Shown here piece by piece: positions 2,153 to 38,795 of a stretch of DNA of 39,025 nucleotides (position 1 is the first letter of the stretch; each line of letters begins with the position of its first letter). A program made the position numbers and the translations under genes. The notes under the pieces are model-generated. The model saw only the letters and a program-made list of their open reading frames with translations, searched no databases and had not been told where the DNA came from. Source of the stretch: an uncultured Thermotogae bacterium (lineage in GTDB: Bacteria; Bipolaricaulota; Bipolaricaulia; UBA7950; UBA9294); NCBI GenBank assembly GCA_964620325.1, contig CAZUIM010000019.1, forward strand, positions 1,142 to 40,166, given 5' to 3'.

Positions 2153-2482
2153 TCAAGGGGTTGTGTGCTCGTTGTGTCGTCCCTGAATGATCAGAGCGCG
2201 CTCCACCGCCTCCGGCTCGACCAACCGCTCTTCGAGCAGGATATCACCGAGAAGCTTGTCGGTGAACTTGCTCTTCTGAAGCTCAAGGCCCTTCGCGAGA
2301 TCCACATGGCTGAGCACACCGAGGTCGACGAGGATTTCGCCGAGCCGCTTCTCGCGCTCGAAGTGCTTTTCGAGGATCGAAAGGATGACGGCGCTGCGGC
2401 TCTTCCGCTCACGACGTCCTTTCGCGTCGACCTGTTTCATCAGGTAGGCGTCCGCCTCGTTGTAGTAGATGGTCGTCTGCAC
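2153..2482 (-). CDS. Ribbon-helix-helix (CopG/Arc/MetJ-like) DNA-binding domain fused to a tandem MshEN-type c-di-GMP-binding motif. Putative c-di-GMP-responsive transcription factor.
   Basis: GTG start, with an AGGAAGGAG RBS 7 nt upstream. The N-terminal TTIYYNEADAYLMKQVDAKGRRERKSRSAVILSILEKHF fits an RHH beta-strand plus two helices. RLGEILVDLGVLSHVDLAKGLELQ matches the 24-residue MshEN motif RLGxx(L/V/I)(L/V/I)xxG(L/V/I)(L/V/I)xxxxLxxxLxxQ exactly. After a 5-residue spacer (KSKFT) comes a second copy, KLLGDILLEERLVEPEAVERALIIQ (G10 replaced by R). Confidence 0.75.
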   Translation of the reverse strand: MQTTIYYNEADAYLMKQVDAKGRRERKSRSAVILSILEKHFEREKRLGEILVDLGVLSHVDLAKGLELQKSKFTDKLLGDILLEERLVEPEAVERALIIQGRHNEHTTP

Positions 2483-17933: not shown

Positions 17934-17948
17934 CCGGCTCGTCGGCTA
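17931..17948. terminator. Short hairpin TAGCCG-gctcgt-CGGCTA between the convergent trkA and the downstream minus-strand gene. It overlaps both stop codons.
   Basis: Perfect 6-bp inverted repeat with a 6-nt loop. Confidence 0.3.
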
Positions 17949-18665
17949 GTGGTCGGACGAGATCGACACTGGAGAGGCGAGGACTTCGACCTCCCGGAAG
18001 ACCAAATGAAGGACGACTGACCGGTCAGCGTTGCTGTCCGCGTCGTAGAGCAGGAGTGTGAATTCCAACCGGCCCGGATCGGCGAAAATCGTGTTGTCGC
18101 GCAGGAGGGGGCTAAAGATCAGGCCGCGATTCCGGATTGCGCCGTCCTCTCGTCTCAAGGCATCTCCGAGAATCCATATCCCATCGAACGATTCCTCGAG
18201 CGGCTCTCCGTCGAGGATGAGTTCAAATCGGGTCTCGACGGCGAGGAGAGCGAAGGTCACCGGAAGGCGCGGATCGCCGAATTCGTTCTCGCCGTGAACC
18301 GTAACGTTCGTTCGAATGTCCGCGGTCTCGTCGACTCGCGAACGGAGGGTCAACGCGCCGATCCAGGGTCGATCGCCGCGGGAAGGATCGGTCTTCTCGT
18401 CGAGGTGAACGGTGAGGCGAACGACGCCGCAATCGGCCCCTTTGGAGAGGCGAAGCCGACTGTCCCCGTCGGCCGATCGGACCAGGTGGCCCCCGGCGTA
18501 GGCGAATCGATCGCTCGCGTCGCCGACGAGGAGCAGGCCGGAGGCGCGGACTTCCCAACCGGAACTCAGAGCGATCGACTCGTTGATGGCCTGAATGGCG
18601 AGCCAGCCGGCGACGGCGAGGATGCCAATCCCCAGGAGAGCGACGACGGTTCGCGAGGAGTCCAT
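17946..18665 (-). CDS. Hypothetical N-terminally membrane-anchored protein, 239 aa, beta-rich ectodomain
   Basis: N-terminal TM VVALLGIGILAVAGWLAI. High GC3. A 3-nt gap separates it from the upstream gene. No recognisable family. Confidence 0.5.
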   Translation of the reverse strand: MDSSRTVVALLGIGILAVAGWLAIQAINESIALSSGWEVRASGLLLVGDASDRFAYAGGHLVRSADGDSRLRLSKGADCGVVRLTVHLDEKTDPSRGDRPWIGALTLRSRVDETADIRTNVTVHGENEFGDPRLPVTFALLAVETRFELILDGEPLEESFDGIWILGDALRREDGAIRNRGLIFSPLLRDNTIFADPGRLEFTLLLYDADSNADRSVVLHLVFREVEVLASPVSISSDH

Positions 18666-18668
18666 CGA

Positions 18669-19637
18669 CTACCGTGAGATCGTGAACGGCTCGTTGAACG
18701 CCTCGGCGCCGTTCAGGGTGCCGTGCGCTCGGTATCTGCCGCTCGCAAGACCGGCCGGATCGATTCGATAGTGACGCCACTCGCCGGCGGAGACGACGTC
18801 CTCGACGCGGGAAACTGTCGACTGGTCCGGACCGAGCCAGACGAGGTCGAACACATCACTCTGTCCGATCCGTGTGAAGTGAACGATCAGATGGATCGCA
18901 TCGTCGGAGGTGGAGAACCGGCTGGTCGGATCCTTGCCGACGTACCCTTCTCGCTTCGGTTCGACCGAGCGGTAGAGCCCGTAGCGGATCTCCTTGGTGT
19001 AGGCGGCGGTCAGGGCACTCTCGACGTCCCCAGCGATCGACGTCGCCGCAGTGGCGAGGAGTGAGTCGAATCCACCGAATAGGCTCCCCGAACGGAGCGT
19101 AGTCGAGTTGGCCCCCTGCACGTCGAGGGCCCGTTCGATCAGTCCGGTTCTCGTGTCAACGACCTCGACCTGGGCTCGAATCCGGACGCTGTACTCCGTC
19201 GCCGGCGCTTCTTCGGCGCAGTCGCCGTCTTCCCAGGCAACGCAGATCGTCGTCTCACGGGCGTTCGAATCGACAGCGTAGACCGCCCCGGTGATCAGCT
19301 TGTTGACCCCGGTGAGCGTGCCGATCTCGACGGCGGTCGACGGATCGATGAAGCCTGTCTGGGTCAGCGCGTTCTCCATCAGTAAGGCGTCGAGTTGAGC
19401 GCGCGAGTAGACGTCGATCCCGGACGCGTTGACGAGGCGCGTCTCGATTCGCCCGGCCAGCGTCCCTTCGACGCCGGGCCAACTCGAGCTGTTTGTGAAG
19501 GGGAGGACGGCGACGTCGAGTCGCTCGCTCGTGATCACGGCACGTTCCGAGGGCTCCGGAACAACGAAGACCAACAACGTCGCCACCAGCAGGACGCCGA
19601 TGACGAGTGCAATCAGCAGACCGGTGCTGTCGTCCAT
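18669..19637 (-). CDS. Single-pass membrane protein with a CsgG/LpoB/FlgO-like periplasmic domain plus an unknown C-terminal domain
   Basis: ATG with a GGAGGTG RBS. TM LLIALVIGVLLVATLLVFVV. VAVLPFTN...GIDVYSRAQLDALLMENALTQTGFID...GVNKLITGAVYAV matches the CsgG-like fold pattern. Confidence 0.5.
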   Translation of the reverse strand: MDDSTGLLIALVIGVLLVATLLVFVVPEPSERAVITSERLDVAVLPFTNSSSWPGVEGTLAGRIETRLVNASGIDVYSRAQLDALLMENALTQTGFIDPSTAVEIGTLTGVNKLITGAVYAVDSNARETTICVAWEDGDCAEEAPATEYSVRIRAQVEVVDTRTGLIERALDVQGANSTTLRSGSLFGGFDSLLATAATSIAGDVESALTAAYTKEIRYGLYRSVEPKREGYVGKDPTSRFSTSDDAIHLIVHFTRIGQSDVFDLVWLGPDQSTVSRVEDVVSAGEWRHYRIDPAGLASGRYRAHGTLNGAEAFNEPFTISR

Positions 19638-20572
19638 CGCTCACCTCCGCATCCCGGGCTTCGGGGTGATTTACCGTACCTCTGCTCCGGTCCCGTTTCA
19701 AGACGTTCGGGCCTTTGCCGGGCGATTCGATCGGTGGCGACGGTGCAGGCCCTTGCGTTTGCGATCGAGATCGTCTCCCCGCGCAGCCGAGCGACGACGA
19801 AGGCCGCCGCGTAGGCGTCCCCGGCCCCTGTCGTGTCGCCGGAGACGGGTTCGGCGATTGCTGCAAGATCTCGTTCCTCTCCGGACCAGGCGAGTGCGCC
19901 CCGTGGGCCGAGCGTCACCGATCCGACCGAGAACGAGGTCGACAGCGCGTCGGCGATCGCCTCCGGCTCCTCATGGCCGGCGAGGAGCTTGCCTTCGGCT
20001 AGATTGGGGAAGACCCAGTCTGCGCAGGAGATCTCATCGAGAAACGCCTCGACGCCGAACGATGCGATCAGACTCGCCGGAGGCGGATCGATCGACACGG
20101 TCGCGCCGTGTTGGCGGGCGAAGGCGATCGCGCGGTGGGCGGCCGGAAGCTGATGGGCAGAGAGAACGGCGTAGCCGGAGACGTGGAGATGGTCGACACC
20201 GGAGAAGACGCCCTCCTCGATCGACGTCTCGGTCAGACCGTCGTTCGCTCCGCGCGAGCAGATCATCGTTCGCTCGCTCCCCTGCTCAAGGGCGAGGATC
20301 GTTCCGCTCGGTCCTTCGGCACGGCCGACGACGGCTTCGATCCCGGAGTCCTCGAGAGATTGGACGAGCAGGTCGCCGATCAGATCGGTCCCGACGCAAC
20401 CGAGGAAGGTGACGGCGGCGCCCTCGGCGGCCGCGACGCGGGCGAACGTTCCGGCGCTTCCGCCCGGGGCGGCCCAAACCGTGGATCGGACTTCGCTCCC
20501 CGGGGCGACGGCGTCGAATGCGACAGCGTGGACGTCGAGGTTCAGATCGCCGAGGACGACGACCCGACTCAC
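19613..20572 (-). CDS. PfkB-family carbohydrate/ribokinase-like kinase
   Basis: GTG start overlapping the btpA stop (GTGA). VVVLGDLNLDV is at the N-terminus and a GAGD motif (DTTGAGDAYAAAF) lies near the C-terminus. The longer ORF-track frame (652 aa) overprints btpA and is rejected. Confidence 0.8.
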   Translation of the reverse strand: MSRVVVLGDLNLDVHAVAFDAVAPGSEVRSTVWAAPGGSAGTFARVAAAEGAAVTFLGCVGTDLIGDLLVQSLEDSGIEAVVGRAEGPSGTILALEQGSERTMICSRGANDGLTETSIEEGVFSGVDHLHVSGYAVLSAHQLPAAHRAIAFARQHGATVSIDPPPASLIASFGVEAFLDEISCADWVFPNLAEGKLLAGHEEPEAIADALSTSFSVGSVTLGPRGALAWSGEERDLAAIAEPVSGDTTGAGDAYAAAFVVARLRGETISIANARACTVATDRIARQRPERLETGPEQRYGKSPRSPGCGGERWTTAPVC

Positions 20573-21360
20573 TTCGAATCCCTGAGGGTTGCGATCCCCT
20601 CTGCGAGGGCGCGGACGCGTTCGACGTCGATCGCCCCCCCGAGCTTCCCCCCCTCTTTGAGGATCGTGCCGACGATGAACCCGTCGGCGTCTCGGTAGGT
20701 GGCGAGGTTGTCGATCCGGACACCACTGCCGATCAGAACCGGGAGATCGACGACGCTGCGGACCGTCTGCACGTCGGCCGGATCGGTCCGTCGACCGGTC
20801 CCGATTCCCGAGACGATCAGCGCGTCGGGGCCGTTCCTCGCTGCATCGAGCGCCGCTTCCCCCAACCGCGTCAAGTGGGCGGCGTGCTTGACGTGGACGT
20901 CGGCGAGGACCTTCGTCTCGATCCCCAGGTTGCGCTTCAACCACATCAGATCGCGGGCCTGTCCCTCGATCATCCCTTGATCGGCGAACGCGACGCCGGC
21001 GAAGACATTGACCCGAATGAACGCCGCGCCGGTCGCTGCGGCGATCGACATCGCCGCCAGTCCATCGTTGCGGAGCACGTTCACGCCGATCGGGACGGAC
21101 GCCTTCTGCGCAAGGCGATCGACGATGACGGCCATCATCGCGATCGTCTCGGGCGGCGCCGTCTTTGCGTACGGGGTGTCGCCGAGGTTCTCGATGAGGA
21201 CCGCGTCGATGCCGCCCGACTCGAGAGCATAGAGATCGCGCAGGGCAGCATCGATGATCGGCTTCGGCCCCTGCTGTCGGTAGCGGACCGACCCGGCAAC
21301 GGGGAGAAGGTGGATCATCCCGATCAGCGGTTTCTCGACCGTGAAGGTCTTTGCGGACAT
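20569..21360 (-). CDS. BtpA/SgcQ-family TIM-barrel protein
   Basis: IGMIHLLP...GIDAVLIENLGD...GVNVLRND... is the characteristic BtpA pattern. It is 263 aa and paired with a PfkB kinase as in sgc-like loci. Confidence 0.8.
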   Translation of the reverse strand: MSAKTFTVEKPLIGMIHLLPVAGSVRYRQQGPKPIIDAALRDLYALESGGIDAVLIENLGDTPYAKTAPPETIAMMAVIVDRLAQKASVPIGVNVLRNDGLAAMSIAAATGAAFIRVNVFAGVAFADQGMIEGQARDLMWLKRNLGIETKVLADVHVKHAAHLTRLGEAALDAARNGPDALIVSGIGTGRRTDPADVQTVRSVVDLPVLIGSGVRIDNLATYRDADGFIVGTILKEGGKLGGAIDVERVRALAEGIATLRDSK

Positions 21361-21410: not shown

Positions 21411-22199
21411 TTACAGCCAGGGCTCGATGTGGTAGTCGCGCAGCCGGATCGGATGATCGGTGTATCGCACAATTCCCTGGCGATCGAGAACGAACGTATG
21501 CGGGATCCCGTCGACGCCGTAGAGGAAACGGACCGCCGTCGCTTTCTCGAGACTGCCGCGAAGGACGACAAATTCGGTGAATCCGTTCTCGTTCAGGAAG
21601 TCGCGGGCTTTTGCCTCGGTCTCGTCCAAGTTGACGGTGACGGCGACGAGGCCGTCGGCGGCGAACCGCGCCCGAAGAGCCTCCAAATGAGGCATCGTCA
21701 ATCGACAGGGCGGGCAGCTGCTCCGCCAGAAGTCGAGAACGACTACGTAGCCTCGGTACTGGGCGAGGGATGTCTCGACCCCGTCGAGGCTCCTCAGGGT
21801 GAACTCCGGGGCGAGCTCGCCGATCTCGGTCCCCGTCGTCGGGGGCGCGACCGGATTGGAGGTGACAATCGCGCGCGTCGCCCTCCCTTCGCCACCGCGA
21901 TCGTCGGTCACCGTCAGCGTCGCCTCGAACGTTCCGGCCTGCGCGTACGTGTGGGAGACCGTCAGACCCGCGGCGATCGTCCCGTCTCCGAGATTCCATG
22001 CGTAGGCGACGATCGTCCCATCGGCATCGATCGAGTCGCTCGCGTCGAAGAAGACGGAGAGGGGGACGTCGCCGCTCGATGGAGACCGAGTGAATGACGC
22101 GATCGGGGATCGATTCAGCGCGATGCAGGAACTCATCAGGAATGCGACCAATGCAACGAGGAGGGTGGGAAGGGCGATAGCGAGGCGGGTTCGAGTCAT
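21411..22199 (-). CDS. Putative lipoprotein with a PKD domain fused to a TlpA/ResA-like thioredoxin (thiol-disulfide oxidoreductase, CxxC)
   Basis: Signal peptide with LMSSC. PKD-like segment PIASFTRSPSSGDVPLSVFFDASDSIDADGTIVAYAWNLGDG. Thioredoxin motif FWRSSCPPCR. Confidence 0.8.
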   Translation of the reverse strand: MTRTRLAIALPTLLVALVAFLMSSCIALNRSPIASFTRSPSSGDVPLSVFFDASDSIDADGTIVAYAWNLGDGTIAAGLTVSHTYAQAGTFEATLTVTDDRGGEGRATRAIVTSNPVAPPTTGTEIGELAPEFTLRSLDGVETSLAQYRGYVVVLDFWRSSCPPCRLTMPHLEALRARFAADGLVAVTVNLDETEAKARDFLNENGFTEFVVLRGSLEKATAVRFLYGVDGIPHTFVLDRQGIVRYTDHPIRLRDYHIEPWL

Positions 22200-22324
22200 G
22201 GTCGCAGTGTATGTCTCCAGGCAAACCTACGAGGCCCCTCTCGGAGCCTCGTACATTCTCTGGCTTGGGTCCCCTCTCGTACGCCACCAAGCTACGATTC
22301 CTGTGTCAAGGGAGGATGGAGAGG

Positions 22325-22343
22325 TTGTGAAGGGTTTGTGAAG
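22325..22343 (+). promoter_or_regulatory. Perfect 8-bp direct repeat TTGTGAAG-ggt-TTGTGAAG (11-bp periodicity). On the other strand it reads CTTCACAA x2, which is PHO-box-like, suggesting an OmpR/PhoB-family response-regulator site. It lies in the divergent region between the PKD-thioredoxin operon and the phosphatase gene.
   Basis: Exact repeat at 22325-22332 and 22336-22343. It is about 113 nt upstream of ATG 22456. Confidence 0.45.
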
Positions 22344-22455
22344 CGGCCTCCGTGTGGGAGGATCCGGCTCGTCACTCAATCTATCTTCGGTTTTGGATCG
22401 AGGAAGCGGCGCCGCGGGATTTGATTCGCCCCGATCGCTCGGTATCCTCTGGGGC

Positions 22456-23790
22456 ATGGTCGCGAGACAGATCGGATCGGCCGTCCTTGTCGGGCTTTTG
22501 CTCGCCCTTTCGGTGGCGGCCGTCGCCGCTTCGTTCGACCACGGTCCATACTCGGGGGCCCCTTCGCTCGACGGTGTGACCGTCAGTTGGGTCTGTGAGC
22601 CGGCACTGCCGGCGCGGATCGAGTACGAATCGCGGGCCCGGTTCGACGCCGACGGAACGATGACCGGTTCGCTGCTCGTCCCGCCACTTGAGGAGGACAT
22701 CTTGGTCACGACGTCGCACGCGACGATCGAGGATCTCGAGCCCGGCACAGACTACGTGTACCGGGTCGTTCTGATCGACGAGGATGGGGAGGAGACGGTA
22801 AGTCCGATCGGCGCGTTCTCTACCGCACCCGCACCGGGCGAGCCGGTCGCGTTCGTCGTTGTCGCGGACACTCAGAAGCAATCGGAAGGGGTCAATCGCC
22901 TGGCACTGGTCGCCGACGGGATCGCGTCCGATCCGACCGAGTTTGCGTTCATCCTGCACGGCGGCGACGTGGTCGAGATCCCGTCGTCCTTCTACTGGGA
23001 CGACTGGTTCGACGCCTTCGACGAGGCGCTGCTGCGGGCGCCGTTCGTCCCGGTTCTCGGGAATCACGAGAAGAATCATCGATCGTACTACGACGCGTTC
23101 GAGCTTCCGCCGGGCGGCGGAAAGGACGACGAGCGTTGGTGGGCCCTCCACTGGGGTGACGTCGTCGTCGTCGGCCTCGATTCGAACGTCAAGAAGGCGA
23201 GCGACTACCGCACTCAGCAAGAGTGGGCGCGCGAGCATCTCTCCGGGCCTGAACCGCACAAGTTTGCCATCTTCCATCACCCCGTCTTCACCTCCGACGC
23301 GTACCACGAGTCGGGATCTTTCCTGGACAAGATCTACCATCCGATCTTCGCCGAGTGTGGCGTCGATGTCGTCTTCAACGGGCATTCTCACCACTACGAG
23401 CACATCGTTCGTGAGGGCGTGACGTATCTGGTCGTCGGGGGAGGTGGGGCAACCCCGCGGCAGACGCGGCCGGAACACATCGAGGGTTCGGACATCTCCG
23501 TTGAGGGGCACTACTTCTACACGCGCGTCCACACGTCGACGAGTGGGATCCGAGTCGAGACGATCTCGGTCGGCGAAGAGCGTCCCGACGGCGTCTGCAT
23601 CGAGTCGACCGGCCCGATCGATTCCTTCACGTTGAGACCGGACTCTCTGCTGGAGCCGGTCGAGGAACGCGTCCCCGAGCCGCCGTCGGATCCGGAGGCG
23701 GCAGAGGACAGAGCTCAAACGACGTGGATTCTGATCGGGGCAGTGGTTGCGGCGCTCGTCGTCCTTCTGCTGAGCGCCGGGCCCGAGTAG
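22456..23790 (+). CDS. Purple-acid-phosphatase-like metallophosphoesterase with an N-terminal FN3-like domain and a C-terminal TM anchor
   Basis: Signal peptide MVARQIGSAVLVGLLLALSVAAVAA. Metallophosphoesterase motifs GDVVE, GNHE, GHSHHYEH. C-terminal TWILIGAVVAALVVLLLSAG. Confidence 0.8.
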   Translation: MVARQIGSAVLVGLLLALSVAAVAASFDHGPYSGAPSLDGVTVSWVCEPALPARIEYESRARFDADGTMTGSLLVPPLEEDILVTTSHATIEDLEPGTDYVYRVVLIDEDGEETVSPIGAFSTAPAPGEPVAFVVVADTQKQSEGVNRLALVADGIASDPTEFAFILHGGDVVEIPSSFYWDDWFDAFDEALLRAPFVPVLGNHEKNHRSYYDAFELPPGGGKDDERWWALHWGDVVVVGLDSNVKKASDYRTQQEWAREHLSGPEPHKFAIFHHPVFTSDAYHESGSFLDKIYHPIFAECGVDVVFNGHSHHYEHIVREGVTYLVVGGGGATPRQTRPEHIEGSDISVEGHYFYTRVHTSTSGIRVETISVGEERPDGVCIESTGPIDSFTLRPDSLLEPVEERVPEPPSDPEAAEDRAQTTWILIGAVVAALVVLLLSAGPE

Positions 23791-23926: not shown

Positions 23927-24802
23927 GTGGAGTGGACCAAGGGGGGCGCATTGGAGGCAGTCCGCACCGGTCAGGAGTACGTTGCTCGGCAACGACTCTA
24001 TCGCCTTATGCTGTACGTCCTCCTCCTTGCCGGCTGCGCGATCATGCTCCTTCCCTTCTTCTGGATGGTCACCACGTCCCTCAAGACCCAGGCGGAGGCG
24101 CTGCGAGTTCCTCCGCTCTGGTTCCCTTCGACCCTGCAATGGCAGAACTTCGCGAAGGCGTGGAATGCGGCGCCGTTCGGTTGGTACTTCTTCAACAGCT
24201 TCTTTATGGCGATCACGACGACGACCGGAGAGGTCTTCACGACGATTCTCGCCGCCTACACCTTCGCCAAGATGAAGTTCTTCGGGAAGAATGTGTTGTT
24301 CGCGATACTCCTCGGAACGCTGATGATCCCGGGGCAGATGCTCCTGCTGCCGAATTACGTGACGATGGCGCGCCTGAGCTGGCTCGACAAGTACCAGGCG
24401 CTGATCATTCCGTGGCTCGTCTCGGTGTTCGGGATCTTCCTGTTGCGGCAGTTCTTCCGCAGCGTGCCCGATGAGCTGCTCGACGCGGCTCGGATCGACG
24501 GTTGTTCGCGGTTCCGTTTTCTGTTCACGATTATGGTTCCGCTCTCTAAGCCGGCGATCTTCACCGTCGCATTGTTCAAATTCCTCGGTAGCTGGAACTC
24601 GTTCCAGTGGGTTCTGATCATGACGAACTCGGCGAAGATGCGGACGGTGCCCGTCGGGTTGCAGGTGTTCTCGAGCGAAATCGGAACGGCGTACGAGCAG
24701 CTGATGGCCGCCTCGGTTCTGGCCATCATCCCGGTGTTGGTGTTGTTCTTCTTCACCCAGAAGCAGTTCATTCAGGGGGTCGCGAGAACGGGGATCAAGT
24801 GA
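23927..24802 (+). CDS. Carbohydrate ABC transporter permease (MalG/AraQ-like). Start uncertain: GTG 23927, TTG 23951 (which has an AAGGGGGG RBS) or ATG 24009.
   Basis: PFFWMVTTSLK is at the N-terminus. The EAA-like loop is in ARIDGCSRFRFLFTIMVPL. Six TM helices. Confidence 0.8.
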   Translation: MEWTKGGALEAVRTGQEYVARQRLYRLMLYVLLLAGCAIMLLPFFWMVTTSLKTQAEALRVPPLWFPSTLQWQNFAKAWNAAPFGWYFFNSFFMAITTTTGEVFTTILAAYTFAKMKFFGKNVLFAILLGTLMIPGQMLLLPNYVTMARLSWLDKYQALIIPWLVSVFGIFLLRQFFRSVPDELLDAARIDGCSRFRFLFTIMVPLSKPAIFTVALFKFLGSWNSFQWVLIMTNSAKMRTVPVGLQVFSSEIGTAYEQLMAASVLAIIPVLVLFFFTQKQFIQGVARTGIK

Positions 24803-24906
24803 GAAGCCGATCGGAACAATCGACACAAGGAGGTGATGTCGTACTCGGTGGCACGCACGCGGTCTGTACGATCGATGGTCCATGGACTTCAAGGAGGTCT
24901 TGAACG

Positions 24907-26133
24907 ATGAAGCTTCGAGAAACAATGATTGCTCTCGGACTCCTCGCTGTGTTCGCGCTCGGATTCGCGACGATGGCTCAAGAGCCGGTCACGATCGAGT
25001 TCTGGCATCGATTCAGCGAGAGCCACAATGAGGCGCTTGAGAAACTGGCCAGCGACTTTGAGGCGATGTACCCCCATGTCACGGTGGAGTACGTCTATCA
25101 GGGGAGCTACGGCGCACTCCAGCAGAAGATCAACAGCTCCGTCGTCGCGGGCGAGACCCCGACGATGACGATCTTCTACGAGAACTGGATCCCTCCGGTG
25201 CGGGACGCCCTGCTCCCGCTCGACGATCTCCTGTCACAGGAGACCAAGGATGACATCATCGATGGGCTGTACGCCTCATGTACGTTTGAGGGAGAACTCA
25301 TTACGGTGCCGTTCAACAAGTCGATCATGGTGTTCTACTACATCCAAGAGCGCGTGCCGACGCCGCCCACGACCTGGGACGAGCTTCTCCAGCTGTGTCT
25401 GGATCTTGAAGTTGACACCGATGGCGACGGGACCATCGACCAGTGGGGCATCGGTTTCCGCCCGGCGAGCAATCCGGAGCAGTTCTTCACCCTCCTCGCA
25501 CAGAACAACGGGTCGATCCTGAGTGAGGACTGGAGCGAGGTCACGCTCGACAACGAGGCCGGAATGGAGGCCGCGGAGTTCTACGCCGAGCTCTGCCAGC
25601 ACGCGTACATCACGGAGGAGTACCTGAACTCCCATCTCGACAAGCTGGCGATGGCGATCGATACGTCGGCCGGGTACCCGTACTGGGAGTCGGCCGCTTC
25701 CAACCTCGGACTGACGATCGGCGTGGCCCGCGTTCCGGGCAAGGAGAATCGGAAGTCGGCGATCCAGGGAACGAACATCGGAATCTTCAACAGCGCGTCG
25801 CAGGCTGAGATCGACGCGGCGATCCTGTTCGTCGAGTTCCTGTTGTCCGCCGATCAGACTGCGTACTGGGCAATCGACTCCGGCTACATGCCCGTCACGT
25901 ATTCGGGGTATGAGAGTCAGCTGTGGCTCGACTACGGCGCGGAGCACGACTACATCCAGGTGATGACCGAGCAGTTCGCCGACGGCTTTTCGCAGGTTCT
26001 CCATCCGAATTACGGAGACATGCGCGACGAAGTCCTCAGCACGTTCTGTGAAGAGATCGCAACGGGAGCAATGACCGTCGCGGAAGCGATGCCAATCGCC
26101 GTCGCTGATCTCGAGGCGTTGCTCGACTACTAG
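24907..26133 (+). CDS. Extracellular solute-binding protein (family 1, sugar ABC transporter)
   Basis: AAGGAGGT RBS. Signal peptide MKLRETMIALGLLAVFALGFATMAQE, then EFWHRFSESHNEALEKLASDFE, typical of SBP_bac_1. Confidence 0.85.
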   Translation: MKLRETMIALGLLAVFALGFATMAQEPVTIEFWHRFSESHNEALEKLASDFEAMYPHVTVEYVYQGSYGALQQKINSSVVAGETPTMTIFYENWIPPVRDALLPLDDLLSQETKDDIIDGLYASCTFEGELITVPFNKSIMVFYYIQERVPTPPTTWDELLQLCLDLEVDTDGDGTIDQWGIGFRPASNPEQFFTLLAQNNGSILSEDWSEVTLDNEAGMEAAEFYAELCQHAYITEEYLNSHLDKLAMAIDTSAGYPYWESAASNLGLTIGVARVPGKENRKSAIQGTNIGIFNSASQAEIDAAILFVEFLLSADQTAYWAIDSGYMPVTYSGYESQLWLDYGAEHDYIQVMTEQFADGFSQVLHPNYGDMRDEVLSTFCEEIATGAMTVAEAMPIAVADLEALLDY

Positions 26134-26141
26134 GACCGCTA

Positions 26142-26173
26142 CTCGGGTGGGGCGACCATCGGCCCCACCCGAG
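26142..26173 (+). terminator. Perfect 12-bp GC-rich stem-loop (CTCGGGTGGGGC-gaccatcg-GCCCCACCCGAG) immediately after the SBP stop. Likely an intra-operon attenuator/terminator giving SBP excess over the permeases.
   Basis: Exact inverted repeat, followed by TCTGATTCTTCG. Confidence 0.55.
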
Positions 26174-26202
26174 TCTGATTCTTCGATCGGATCGAGGTTC
26201 TG

Positions 26203-27138
26203 ATGGCGTCGAAGGTGCCGTTCTGGAAGAGGCCGATGCCGGACGACTGGCGAAGGCCGGGCTACTGGAGGGACACGGCGTGGGCGTACATCTACCTGGC
26301 GCCCGCGTTGGTGATCCTCGGTGTGTTCACGTTCTATCCCTTCTTTTCCGCCTTTCAACTGAGCCTCTACAAGGTGTCGTTCACCAATTTCCCGGGGACG
26401 TACATCGGCCTCGATCACTACAGGTATATCTTTGGCGACCGTTACTTTTGGCAAGCCCTTTGGCATACGCTGGTCATTGTGGGGGTCAGCGTGCCGGTCA
26501 CGCTGTTTCTGGCGCTCATGGTTGCGAGCCTGCTGAACAAGTCCCTGCGACTGCGGACGTTCGCACGCACCTCGTTCTTCCTATCATACATCACGCCGAT
26601 GGTCGCCGTGATCATGGTCTGGCGATTGATGTACAACGAGAGCTATGGGTTGATCAACTATTTCCTCGGACTGATCGGCATCAATCCGATTGCATGGCTG
26701 AACAGCACAGAATGGGCGTTGCCGTCGGTGATCATCCTGAGTGTGTGGCGATACGTCGGGTACCAAGCGATCATTCTCCTCGCCGGGATGCAGGGGATCG
26801 ATCAGATGTACTACGAAGCTGCGCGCATCGACGGCGCGTCGGGCTTTCAGGTCTGGCGGAAGATCACCGTGCCGCTTCTGACGCCGCAGATCTTTTTCCT
26901 GTTGATCATTTCGATGATCGGCTCGTTCAAGATTTTCACCGAGGTCTACGTGTTGTTCAATGGACCTGGCCGACTGAAGAGCGCAGAGACACTCGTCTAC
27001 TATATCATGCGACAGGGCTTCTTCGGCACACCCCACTACGGTCGCGCCGCGGCCGCATCGATCGTCCTCTTCGCGATCATCTTCGTCGTCACGCTGTTGC
27101 AGATGCAGGTGGCGAAGCGGCGCGTTCACTATCAGTAG
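26203..27138 (+). CDS. Carbohydrate ABC transporter permease (MalF/UgpA-like)
   Basis: EAA loop in EAARIDGASGFQVWRKITVPLL. Multi-TM. Confidence 0.85.
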   Translation: MASKVPFWKRPMPDDWRRPGYWRDTAWAYIYLAPALVILGVFTFYPFFSAFQLSLYKVSFTNFPGTYIGLDHYRYIFGDRYFWQALWHTLVIVGVSVPVTLFLALMVASLLNKSLRLRTFARTSFFLSYITPMVAVIMVWRLMYNESYGLINYFLGLIGINPIAWLNSTEWALPSVIILSVWRYVGYQAIILLAGMQGIDQMYYEAARIDGASGFQVWRKITVPLLTPQIFFLLIISMIGSFKIFTEVYVLFNGPGRLKSAETLVYYIMRQGFFGTPHYGRAAAASIVLFAIIFVVTLLQMQVAKRRVHYQ

Positions 27139-27663: not shown

Positions 27664-28320
27664 TTAGGGGGGCGTCGGCGCGACGGGGATGATCTCCGGC
27701 GAGGAGGTGTACCTGGTCGGCATCGTGCCGATCGCCCAGCCGGTCGCCGTCGTTTCGAGGTAGTAGTATCTGTCGCCGCTCCATTCGTACCACACCGCCT
27801 CGGGCGCGTTCGGCGGAAGGACGCGAATCCCGACGGCCATGTGATTCTCGGCGGTGAACGCGAGGAGGACAACGCCGAATCCCATCTGCTCGAAGATGGC
27901 GGCTGTGAGAATCGCGAAATCCTCGCAGTCTCCGCAGCCTTCAACGAGCGTTTCGATCGGGTACCGCGGGTACTCCCCCTCTTCCGCTTCGTAGCGGAGC
28001 GACTGCACGAACGCGACGACAAGGTTGAGCTTCTCCCACACGTTGAGGCCGGCCGAGTGGGCCATCCCTTCCATGTCGGCGATCAGCGAGGCGAGTTCGA
28101 CGTCGTTGCTCGGTTCCAGAGCGTAGGCCGCGTAGGCGGTGTACGCGGCGACTCGGGGAAGAGATCGGAAGTGGCGGTACGCGTCGCCGGAGAAGGTGTG
28201 GGTGAGCGTCCAGACTCGTCCCGAGAACTCCCACGTGAATTCGCGCGTGATCGGTGCTGCTTGCCCCCAAAGCTCAACGGCGAATGCGGTCACAAGAACC
28301 GCGAGAACGAGCTTCCGCAT
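27664..28320 (-). CDS. Secreted transglutaminase-like (papain-fold) cysteine peptidase
   Basis: ATG 28320 with an AGGGAG RBS. Signal peptide MRKLVLAVLVTAFAVELWGQAA. Transglut_core catalytic signature GCGDCEDFA (G-x-C-x-x-F-A), with His at ENHMAVG about 35 aa later and an acidic residue in YYYLETT. Confidence 0.65.
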   Translation of the reverse strand: MRKLVLAVLVTAFAVELWGQAAPITREFTWEFSGRVWTLTHTFSGDAYRHFRSLPRVAAYTAYAAYALEPSNDVELASLIADMEGMAHSAGLNVWEKLNLVVAFVQSLRYEAEEGEYPRYPIETLVEGCGDCEDFAILTAAIFEQMGFGVVLLAFTAENHMAVGIRVLPPNAPEAVWYEWSGDRYYYLETTATGWAIGTMPTRYTSSPEIIPVAPTPP

Positions 28321-28471
28321 CCCACTCCCTGCCTTTCTGAATCCGTGCCTCGAGGAAGACGCCGGAGCGTGACTTGCATTACACTCCGACAATGAGAAGG
28401 TAGTCGGGAGTTGTCGATCGTTCGTGAAGATCGAATGGGGCGTGTGTGTTGGCGCTCGGTCGTCGGGGGGG

Positions 28472-37329: not shown

Positions 37330-37815
37330 CTGCGCGCGTCAAGCGGCGGGTTCAGAGATCAGCGATGATGGACTGAAATAGACGGTGTCCGCAGAGGGGG
37401 AAAGGAAAATCGGCGCTTCGAATAACGGGGCATGCCATCGAGGTGCAGCGGTGCACGACACGCAACTTCGTAGTCAGGACTCCCGCTGCTCGGAGGAGCA
37501 GGGTCAAGTCTTGCAATGCAATATGAGTGACAGCTGGGATTCGCTAGATGCTAGTGCTGCAGTGCAAGACCTCGTATCTTGGCGGGGCGTCGTAGCTGTC
37601 GTGCATCTCTGGACTGAGTCGGATGGAGATGCTCGCGGGTGGGCAGATCGGGCAAGACCGGAACGACGAAGTCGTCAGTTCGCGGGTCAGATGGACCGCC
37701 CTCCCACAAGCCAGGACAGCATCAAGAGCGCAGCTCGCGCTGCAGCTCGTGTTTACGAGGTCAGGCTGGAGAGGGCAGCCCACACGAACTCTCCATCACT
37801 CTAGGATGACGGAGG
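37330..37815 (+). ncRNA. Candidate IS110-type bridge/guide ncRNA region (structured 5' non-coding arm of the IS)
   Basis: IS110-group elements encode their bridge RNA in the left arm upstream of the transposase (established knowledge). Here stems are visible, for example CTGCTC-ggag-GAGCAG (37481-37496) and GTCTTGCA...TGCAAGAC (37509-37571, 8-bp arms). The ORF-track ORF at 37385-37804 has poor coding character. Confidence 0.35.
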
Positions 37816-37820
37816 TTCCG

Positions 37821-38795
37821 ATGAACTGTATCGGTGTCGATGTCAGCAAGCAAGAGCTGGTCACCTTCGACGGTAGCAAGGAGCGGATCTTCCCCAACAC
37901 GAGTGGGCTAGCCGAGTTCGGTCGATTCCTCAAGCGATCGAAGGATGCGCTGGTGGTGTTCGAGCCGACGAGCACGTACTCACGCAGGCTGGAGGCGTTG
38001 TGCAGAGCGCAGCGCATCACGTGCTGTCAACTGAATCCACGTGTGGTTCCGCATCTGCGTCAAGTAGGCAAGGGACGCTCGAAGACGGACAGCACGGATG
38101 CAGAACTCCTGTATCGCTACGGGATCGAGCGCGGACACAGCGAAGCAACTCCACTCGAGAACGACGCACTGGCTGAATCGATCCAGGCGCGGCTCGCCTG
38201 CTACCGCGTGGCCCAGAAGGGGCGTGTTGCCTACCAGAACGTGTTCGAGGCGTTGAGCCAGGATCCGGAGACATCGGGAGCGCTGCTCGCTGAGCTTCGG
38301 ACGGAGATCTCCGAGCTGAAGAAGAAGGAGAAGCAGCATCTCGATGCGGCACAGCAGCTCGTCGAGGAAGATGAAGAGATCTCACAACGACTGAACGCGC
38401 TCCTCTCGATTCCCGGCGTTGGCCCGATCATCGCACTGACGCTCCTCGCGCTGTTCCGCAAGTACGCTGACGTGAATCGGGGCCAGATCGTCGCGCTGGC
38501 CGGATTCGACCCGATTCAGGTGCAATCTGGAACGTCAGTTCACGGGAAGAGCCGGATCAGCAAGCGTGGGAACCGAGAGGTCCGCAAGCGTCTGTTCGAA
38601 GCGACGTTGTCTGCCGCTCGCTACAACCCGAGCATCCGCGCGATCTACCGACGGCTAAAGGAAGCAGGGAAGCCGGAGAAGGTGGCGAGGATCGCAGCGG
38701 CGCGGAAGCTGCTACTGATTGCCCATGCTATCTACAAGAGCGGGGATCCCTACCGCGATCCGAACGTCGAGCATGAGTTCCGTAGGAACTCGTAA
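37821..38795 (+). CDS. IS110-family transposase (DEDD/RuvC-like N-terminal domain plus Transposase_20 C-terminal domain)
   Basis: ATG 37821 with a GGAGGT RBS 5 nt upstream. MNCIGVDVSKQELV...FEPTSTYSRRL (DEDD). C-terminal LSIPGVGPIIALTLLA...AGFDPIQVQSGTSVHGKSRISKRGNREVRKRL. Confidence 0.85.
   Translation: MNCIGVDVSKQELVTFDGSKERIFPNTSGLAEFGRFLKRSKDALVVFEPTSTYSRRLEALCRAQRITCCQLNPRVVPHLRQVGKGRSKTDSTDAELLYRYGIERGHSEATPLENDALAESIQARLACYRVAQKGRVAYQNVFEALSQDPETSGALLAELRTEISELKKKEKQHLDAAQQLVEEDEEISQRLNALLSIPGVGPIIALTLLALFRKYADVNRGQIVALAGFDPIQVQSGTSVHGKSRISKRGNREVRKRLFEATLSAARYNPSIRAIYRRLKEAGKPEKVARIAAARKLLLIAHAIYKSGDPYRDPNVEHEFRRNS

Follow-up and report, generated by a model that had tools for sequence, protein, structure and literature searches.

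The locus described here raises two questions: to which of two divergent genes a perfect, 11-bp-phased direct repeat belongs, and by what class of protein it would be read. The repeat lies in the 256-nt gap between the genes 21411-22199 (minus strand) and 22456-23790 (plus strand) of a 39,025-nt stretch of DNA, which is referred to as the window throughout; named homologues of both flanking proteins come from Candidatus Bipolaricaulota. To our knowledge this phylum (formerly Acetothermia/OP1) has no cultured representatives and almost nothing is known of its transcriptional control, and we know of no such regulatory site described in it before. A first-pass annotation of the window had reported an 8-mer repeated exactly with a 3-nt spacer at 22325-22343, and the sequence is exactly as claimed. 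The following features are needed at the outset:

22325-22332 and 22336-22343, plus strand: direct repeat TTGTGAAG-GGT-TTGTGAAG (spacer GGT, period 11), ending 112 nt before the phosphoesterase ATG (22456)
22456-23790, plus strand: metallophosphoesterase, 444 aa, hydrophobic N-terminus, Metallophos 3.9e-14
21411-22199, minus strand: PKD + thioredoxin-fold lipoprotein gene (ResA/TlpA-like), 262 aa, Pfam PKD_4 and AhpC-TSA/Redoxin
20569-21360: BtpA, the next gene after the PKD-thioredoxin gene
19613-20572: PfkB
18669-19637: CsgG-like gene
17946-18665: gene for a 239-aa protein

The PKD-thioredoxin protein and its orthologues carry a lipoprotein-type N-terminus, and the best NCBIfam resemblance of the former is to ResA (78 bits, under the cut-off of that family). 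The window is bacterial by its gene content (MutS, RsmH, a penicillin-binding protein, MnmG and a SurA-like protein). It also has an IS110-family transposase gene near its end (37623-38795, plus strand; DEDD_Tnp_IS110 and Transposase_20). Two c-di-GMP-I (GGC variant) riboswitch aptamers were recognised at gathering score on the minus strand (2540-2652 and 2032-2107; 63.8 and 62.9 bits). The one at 2540-2652 precedes a 109-aa ORF (2153-2482, minus strand) with, as judged by eye, a ribbon-helix-helix start and MshEN/T2SSE_N-like repeats.

Taken by itself, the perfect 8-mer repeat is near chance and constitutes weak evidence. Exact 8-mer direct repeats with periods of 8-24 occur in the 39-kb window at 0-7 per period, the TTGTGAAG pair being the sole one with period 11. 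The 8-mer was observed three times in the window (0.41 expected); its third exact copy (19493-19500, plus strand) is situated inside the CsgG-like coding region without a phased partner and is most likely a chance occurrence. Despite these unremarkable statistics, chance as the sole origin of the repeat was ruled out by conservation: the TTCACA/TCACA cores and the 11-bp register do not change across the 12 distinct upstream regions of orthologues, and the flanks and spacers vary freely around them. When 577 kb of related DNA was searched, the pattern TTCACA-N5-NTCACA was confined to the element upstream of the thioredoxin gene.

Orthologous loci were gathered via the two flanking proteins and by one metagenome scan with the invariant core. 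Both the repeat and a nearby stem-loop are held in a non-coding block of about 125 nt (22223-22346). Relative to the closest relative (lineage L036), this block is 90% identical over 124 nt, the phosphoesterase coding DNA (gene start) 70%, and the PKD-thioredoxin protein 69%. In total, 12 lineages yielded twelve distinct versions, each lying directly upstream of a PKD-thioredoxin orthologue (51-69% identical); the core of the block begins 75-84 nt before the ATG of that gene wherever the distance was measured (11 sequences). On the opposite flank the neighbour differs, at least five kinds being found among the lineages: the phosphoesterase in the window, a 193-aa membrane protein in L036, a 218-aa protein in L043, a GAF protein in L047, a cNMP-binding protein in L050, and inhibitor I42 in L064 and L067. 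The array is likewise carried by the L055, L056 and L057 lineages, and CP070725.1 and the L072 lineage are without it. It had been remarked before that the repeat also lies upstream of the divergent PKD-thioredoxin operon, and this is the gene that the block precedes in 12/12 lineages. Judged by this linkage, the block, repeat included, is part of the promoter of the PKD-thioredoxin gene on the minus strand, whatever the opposite neighbour.

Read on the minus strand, the region comprises four 11-bp-phased units (CTTCACAA, CTTCACAA, CTCCATCC and CTTGACAC), followed by an 8-nt spacer and a -10 of the form TAnnnT:

22333-22343, minus strand: unit R1, CTTCACAAacc (hexamer TTCACA), the second TTGTGAAG copy on the other strand, about -61 to -51 (here and below, counted from the predicted start at about 22282)
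22322-22332, minus strand: unit R2, CTTCACAAcct, the first TTGTGAAG copy, about -50 to -40
22311-22321, minus strand: unit R3, CTCCATCCtcc, degenerate (consensus CTyCAyss), about -39 to -29
22303-22310, minus strand: unit R4, CTTGACAC, about -28 to -21 (TTGACA, TCTACA or TCTATA in relatives)
22295-22302, minus strand: variable 8-nt spacer
22289-22294, minus strand: predicted -10 hexamer TAGCTT, TAnnnT in 12/12 sequences at a fixed distance from R4
22283-22288, minus strand: variable discriminator of 6-7 nt
22254-22282, minus strand: leader start, GTACGAGAGGGGAC then CCAAGCCAGAGAATG, with a 14-mer identical in 12 lineages
22228-22253, minus strand: leader hairpin, TACGAGGCTCC / GAGA / GGGGCCTCGTA

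The TTCACA of R1 is invariant in 11/11 sequences reaching that position, with the 11-bp register fixed, and the TCACA of R2 in 12/12. R3, which covers the expected place of a -35 element, retains CA at unit positions 4-5 in all 12 sequences with the register unchanged, and positions 2, 5 and 7 of R4 (T..A.A) are likewise invariant (12/12). Not a single indel was found between R1 and TAnnnT in the 12 sequences, in which the spacers, the discriminator and all DNA upstream of R1 vary freely. No TTGAnn is present 17 nt from the -10 in any of them, a place at which phosphoesterase promoters of this phylum do have one. The TTGACA form of R4 was considered as a -35 and rejected: a distance of only 9 nt to the conserved TAnnnT makes it unusable as such, and no conserved -10 lies 17 nt downstream of it. 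A sigma-54 promoter was dismissed by eye (the GG of the -24 element is absent), as was an ECF-type promoter (GGAAC-like bases are unconserved and wrongly spaced); a generic sigma-70 scan called no promoter at the array. The -10 and the start site near 22282 are predicted from conservation alone. A fixed array, TAnnnT, no -35 and an invariant 14-mer at the predicted start together form what is, on the reading of the alignment, the footprint of an activator-dependent promoter.

The array is probably bound by a regulator of the OmpR/PhoB family that would replace the missing -35 contact. With the -10 kept and the -35 missing, a response regulator substituting for the -35 contact is the most likely mechanism; and binding by the OmpR/PhoB family is the most likely kind, since the array has the published PHO-box form of four 11-bp-phased hexamers. 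Sites of this family have two or more direct repeats with a core of 6-8 bp and a centre-to-centre distance of 10-11 bp; here there are four units at exactly 11 bp, and the array occupies the -35 position, with a -10 present and the -35 absent. The OmpR/PhoB-type anatomy proposed at first pass is thus strengthened: there are four phased units rather than two, ending 8 nt before a conserved -10 without a -35. Under the proposed mechanism, the array (TTCACA, TTCACA, TyCAyn, TTGACA/TCTACA) would span about -61 to -21 of the thioredoxin operon promoter, with the perfect repeat as its high-affinity half. A phosphorylated, winged-helix response regulator of this family would bind head-to-tail as two tandem dimers, stand in for the missing -35 contact and recruit RNA polymerase; transcription would then start near 22282, giving a leader that opens with the invariant GUACGAGAGGGGAC and carries the conserved hairpin. 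An OmpR-type DNA-binding domain, PstS and PhoU were sought by tblastn (E. coli PhoB, PstS and PhoU as approximate query sequences), and none was found in the window or at the element-bearing loci, the DNA searched amounting to 7-39 kb per genome. The motif alone does not name the protein, since TTCACAA is also a Rex half-site and TCACA a CRP-type half-site. The targets, a ResA/TlpA-like thiol-disulfide oxidoreductase and a Cys-dependent transglutaminase-like protein (see below), may point to a theme of envelope or thiol-redox function more than to one of phosphate. A ResD consensus was sought in the literature and nothing usable was found, so that a resemblance to ResD was left out of the evidence.

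The invariant 14-mer begins exactly at the end of the variable discriminator, 6-7 nt after TAnnnT. The leader shows hardly any variation between 22282 and about 22223 (minus strand) and is composed of GUACGAGAGGGGAC (12/12), a purine-rich linker and the hairpin. The stem-loop had been noticed before as a shorter element; it is real and has 11-nt arms (22228-22238 and 22243-22253) around the loop 22239-22242. It is a conserved hairpin of the minus-strand leader and no separate plus-strand feature. All 10 distinct sequences counted preserve its upper eight pairs, and 6-9 of the 10 its three basal pairs. The loop measures 4 to 6 nt across the sequences, and this varying length speaks against a DNA palindrome of fixed spacing to which a dimeric protein would bind. 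One pair alternates between U.G and U-A (five sequences each), which on the plus strand would amount to a C.A mismatch and so marks the minus strand as the RNA strand. For the leader as a whole (22223-22282), 93% of the cells of 16 proposed pairs are paired; only one cell is changed on both sides, and most of the pairs never vary. RNAalifold found no compensatory pairs in the leader hairpin, and for this reason the structure is unproven by covariation.

Searches with Rfam 15 returned no family in 22200-22455 at E <= 10 and none at gathering score. A covariance model of the leader matched one copy per lineage and none elsewhere, the leader (22223-22282, minus strand) being present only upstream of PKD-thioredoxin orthologues. 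Coding explanations were also rejected: the plus-strand ORF 22090-22341 runs through the block, and relatives carry 1- and 2-nt indels; the ATG in the minus-strand leader, considered as a coding start, is missing from L047 and L055, and 1- or 2-nt indels again occur in relatives. A conservative guess at the role of the leader is that of a stabilising or protein-binding 5' element. More tentatively, and with a rather low probability, it may be a new cis-regulatory RNA specific to Bipolaricaulota ResA-like thioredoxin genes that binds a ligand or a protein and acts after initiation, on top of the response-regulator-dependent promoter. If so, leader and promoter would jointly mark out an envelope thiol-redox regulon not known before, in a phylum that is uncultivated.

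With a matrix derived from R1-R2, a borderline match was obtained at 28429 (minus strand), and alignment with relatives then showed a conserved array at this place:

28397-28451, minus strand: second array, CAACACACacg, CCCCATTCgat, CTTCACGAacg and ATCGACAA, then 8 nt and TACCTT (-10, 28397-28402)
27664-28320, minus strand: gene served by the second array, secreted transglutaminase-like protein, 218 aa, DUF553 (24.3 bits, above cut-off)

In the second array TACCTT is followed by 7 nt and then by a 5'-terminal hairpin; the start predicted for this promoter is at about 28389 (minus strand). The array is conserved in four lineages (L036, L037/L038 and L043 among them) and has up to six phased units (L043, L037). 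The window was also scanned for any set of four hexamers that keep an 11-bp phase and stand 9 nt ahead of TAnnnT; only two sites were returned, with scores of 20 and 15 (the latter being the second array), and 0/100 shuffles reached a score of 15. As the second array had first been noticed via the matrix from the first, its discovery was not fully blind. TTCACA-type arrays were thus found at more than one promoter within the 7-39 kb searched per genome. Since a second promoter shares the design, the thioredoxin and transglutaminase-like genes probably form a small regulon of cell-envelope proteins. The transglutaminase-like gene adjoins a gene for a chagasin-family inhibitor. PKD-thioredoxin paralogues number two per genome (28472-29305 and 21411-22199, both on the minus strand, in the window), and the repeat block is found only at the paralogue with BtpA/PfkB/CsgG downstream. 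Both paralogues and both arrays are adjacent in L043; in the window the two paralogues are separated by the phosphoesterase-ABC-inhibitor cluster.

On the plus strand, the following features belong to the opposite neighbour:

22421-22426 and 22443-22448, plus strand: phosphoesterase promoter-like site TTGATT-N16-TATCCT, recognised by eye, ending 7 nt before the ATG
22421-23790 and 23927-27138, plus strand: the phosphoesterase cluster of the window

Among 32 phosphoesterase upstream regions, many show TTGAnn/TGGAnn-N16/17-TAnnCT near the start codon (by eye), and the TAnnnT/TAnnCT form of the -10 is also visible in many upstream regions of phosphoesterase orthologues. A stricter sigma-70 scan did not call the promoter-like site of the window. 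The site ends 7 nt before the ATG, so that the phosphoesterase mRNA may be leaderless. In the window lineage, L036, L037-L039 and L040-L042 the phosphoesterase gene opens a cluster that also encodes two permeases and a binding protein; the transport proteins most resemble UgpE, UgpA and UgpB, all below the family cut-offs, and in L040 a MalK-like ATPase gene lies divergently upstream of the cluster. In several other Bipolaricaulota genomes CheY-like receiver-domain coding was seen within about 400 bp upstream of the phosphoesterase orthologue (L004, 3608-3832; L009, 3616-3846; L015, 710-2012; L006, 3518-3823). The receiver part alone matches PhoB at those loci, where no OmpR-type DNA-binding domain was seen.

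The gene named at first pass as the target of the repeat was this phosphoesterase, described as secreted and purple-acid-phosphatase-like. Besides the Metallophos match and the hydrophobic N-terminus, it has a weak Pur_ac_phosph_N match of 25.4 bits, below the 30-bit cut-off. The repeat would in that case be a Pho-type activator site for the plus-strand gene about 113 nt downstream, possibly for both divergent genes. Its geometry is as described, the phosphoesterase gene keeps its place at the head of a cluster that encodes Ugp-like permeases and a binding protein and forms a plausible phosphate-scavenging unit, and the ugp operon of E. coli is Pho-regulated (PMC4415409). Such a role is nevertheless highly improbable. 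Neither TTGTGAA nor TTCACAA occurs within 500 bp upstream of the phosphoesterase orthologues (0/29 loci), and adjacency is restricted to the window lineage and L036, in the latter of which another gene intervenes. The gene has its own promoter-like site, with a -35-like hexamer, beside the ATG, which puts the repeat at about -115, and the units point the opposite way, toward the thioredoxin -10. The assignment to the phosphatase is thus not supported: in every lineage the block follows the thioredoxin gene, 0/29 orthologue loci of the phosphoesterase carry the motif, and the latter gene has a promoter-like site of its own.

The remaining readings differ in what would bind, and not all of them place the event on DNA. 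A true PHO box, bound by a regulator of PhoB/PhoP type, would be a special case of the OmpR/PhoB-family array and would make the thioredoxin operon and the transglutaminase-like gene a Pho regulon. In favour of this reading, the resA promoter is bound by PhoP in Bacillus, where resA is likewise a gene for a thioredoxin of ResA type, and the array of the window faces a phosphoesterase and a Ugp-like ABC transporter cluster. Four TTCACA/TTGACA-like hexamers with 11-bp periodicity moreover correspond to the Bacillus-type definition (PMC11870197) and to that of the 7+4 unit (PMC4415409). A Pho regulon is all the same unlikely: no phosphate function is evident for either of the two regulated genes, the neighbour related to phosphate is not kept beside the array and its orthologues are without the motif (0/29 phosphoesterase orthologue loci carry it upstream), and similar hexamers are recognised by paralogous OmpR-family regulators, so that the motif does not identify PhoP. 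It is quite unlikely that a non-OmpR or new regulator, for example a Rex-like or CRP/FNR-like protein, acts as repressor or activator on TTCACAA/TCACA half-sites in an unusual direct arrangement. The Rex operator TTGTGAA-N4-TTCACAA (PMC2883068) agrees with the array in its half-site and in the 11-bp spacing, the gene controlled here encodes a redox protein, and cNMP-binding, GAF and cyclase genes lie just upstream in some lineages. The units are, however, in direct orientation in each of the 12 sequences, an inverted partner being absent on both sides, whereas the symmetric dimers of the Rex and CRP families require inverted half-sites; 4-6 phased units up to the -10 typify OmpR-family arrays and not an 18-bp operator. 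Finally, the whole block might be transcribed and act as RNA, either as a structured leader or as a small RNA, its C/A-rich repeats binding a protein or pairing with the G-rich GAGAGGGG. The downstream half of the block is indeed RNA-like (the stem is kept, the loop varies and the wobble is specific to the minus strand), and CCUCUC at the R2/R3 junction is complementary to GAGAGG. This is very unlikely for the block as a whole: the DNA upstream of R1 is unconserved; in L050 only 23 nt separate R1 from the end of the preceding gene, too little to hold a shared promoter upstream of R1; and the variable discriminator and the TAnnnT hexamer are promoter-like. L064 and L067 have lost CCUCUC, with GAGAGGGG remaining invariant, and folding of the block is no more stable than that of shuffles (z = -1.4; other strand, +0.95), with no Rfam match.

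With the OmpR/PhoB-family array upstream of the thioredoxin operon as the preferred reading, the locus provides a concrete promoter design for Bipolaricaulota, in which a phased TTCACA array precedes a TAnnnT -10 and a predicted start site. The design has been conserved between lineages that share only about 50% protein identity, and two promoters of cell-envelope proteins have it; searches with it in metagenome-assembled genomes can serve to identify the cognate two-component system and the genes of its regulon. As for the invariant leader, it may represent a new RNA element. For annotation, caution is advisable, as a motif facing a 'classic' target may belong to the gene on the opposite strand.

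Several known systems were compared with the array. The OmpR sites at ompF and ompC are several phased sites of graded quality, the strongest upstream and the weakest by the promoter, and in SARP-regulated promoters with heptamer repeats about 8 bp separate the last repeat from the -10. The array resembles both in its graded, phased units and in the 8 nt between its last unit and the -10, and differs from them in its sequence motif. The Rex operator is an inverted TTGTGAA-N4-TTCACAA (PMC2883068); it shares an identical half-site, the 11-bp half-site spacing and a target of redox function, but here both copies run in the same direction in all lineages and the array reaches four or more units. 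Sites of the PhoB/OmpR family consist of 11-nt direct-repeat units (seven conserved and four variable positions) that are bound head-to-tail (PMC4415409). Like the E. coli PhoB and Streptomyces PhoP boxes, the array is built of 11-nt direct-repeat units; unlike them, it is not upstream of a conserved Pho gene. Its core is TTCACAA, compared with CTGTCAT in E. coli and GTTCACC in Streptomyces (PMC4415409), so that the closeness to actinobacterial GTTCACC suggested earlier holds as a partial fit, the core itself being a different one. The PHO box of Bacillus subtilis (the PhoP core binding region) has four TT(A/T/C)ACA-like hexamers with 11-bp periodicity on the coding strand (PMC11870197). The genes served here, for a thioredoxin-fold lipoprotein and a transglutaminase-like protein, are not phosphate-scavenging genes as in that system, but the array of TTCACA, TTCACA, TyCAyn and TTGACA/TCTACA at about -60 to -22 is like it, and among the PHO-box consensuses, all of which come from other phyla, the core fits the Bacillus form and not the CTGTCAT of E. 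coli.
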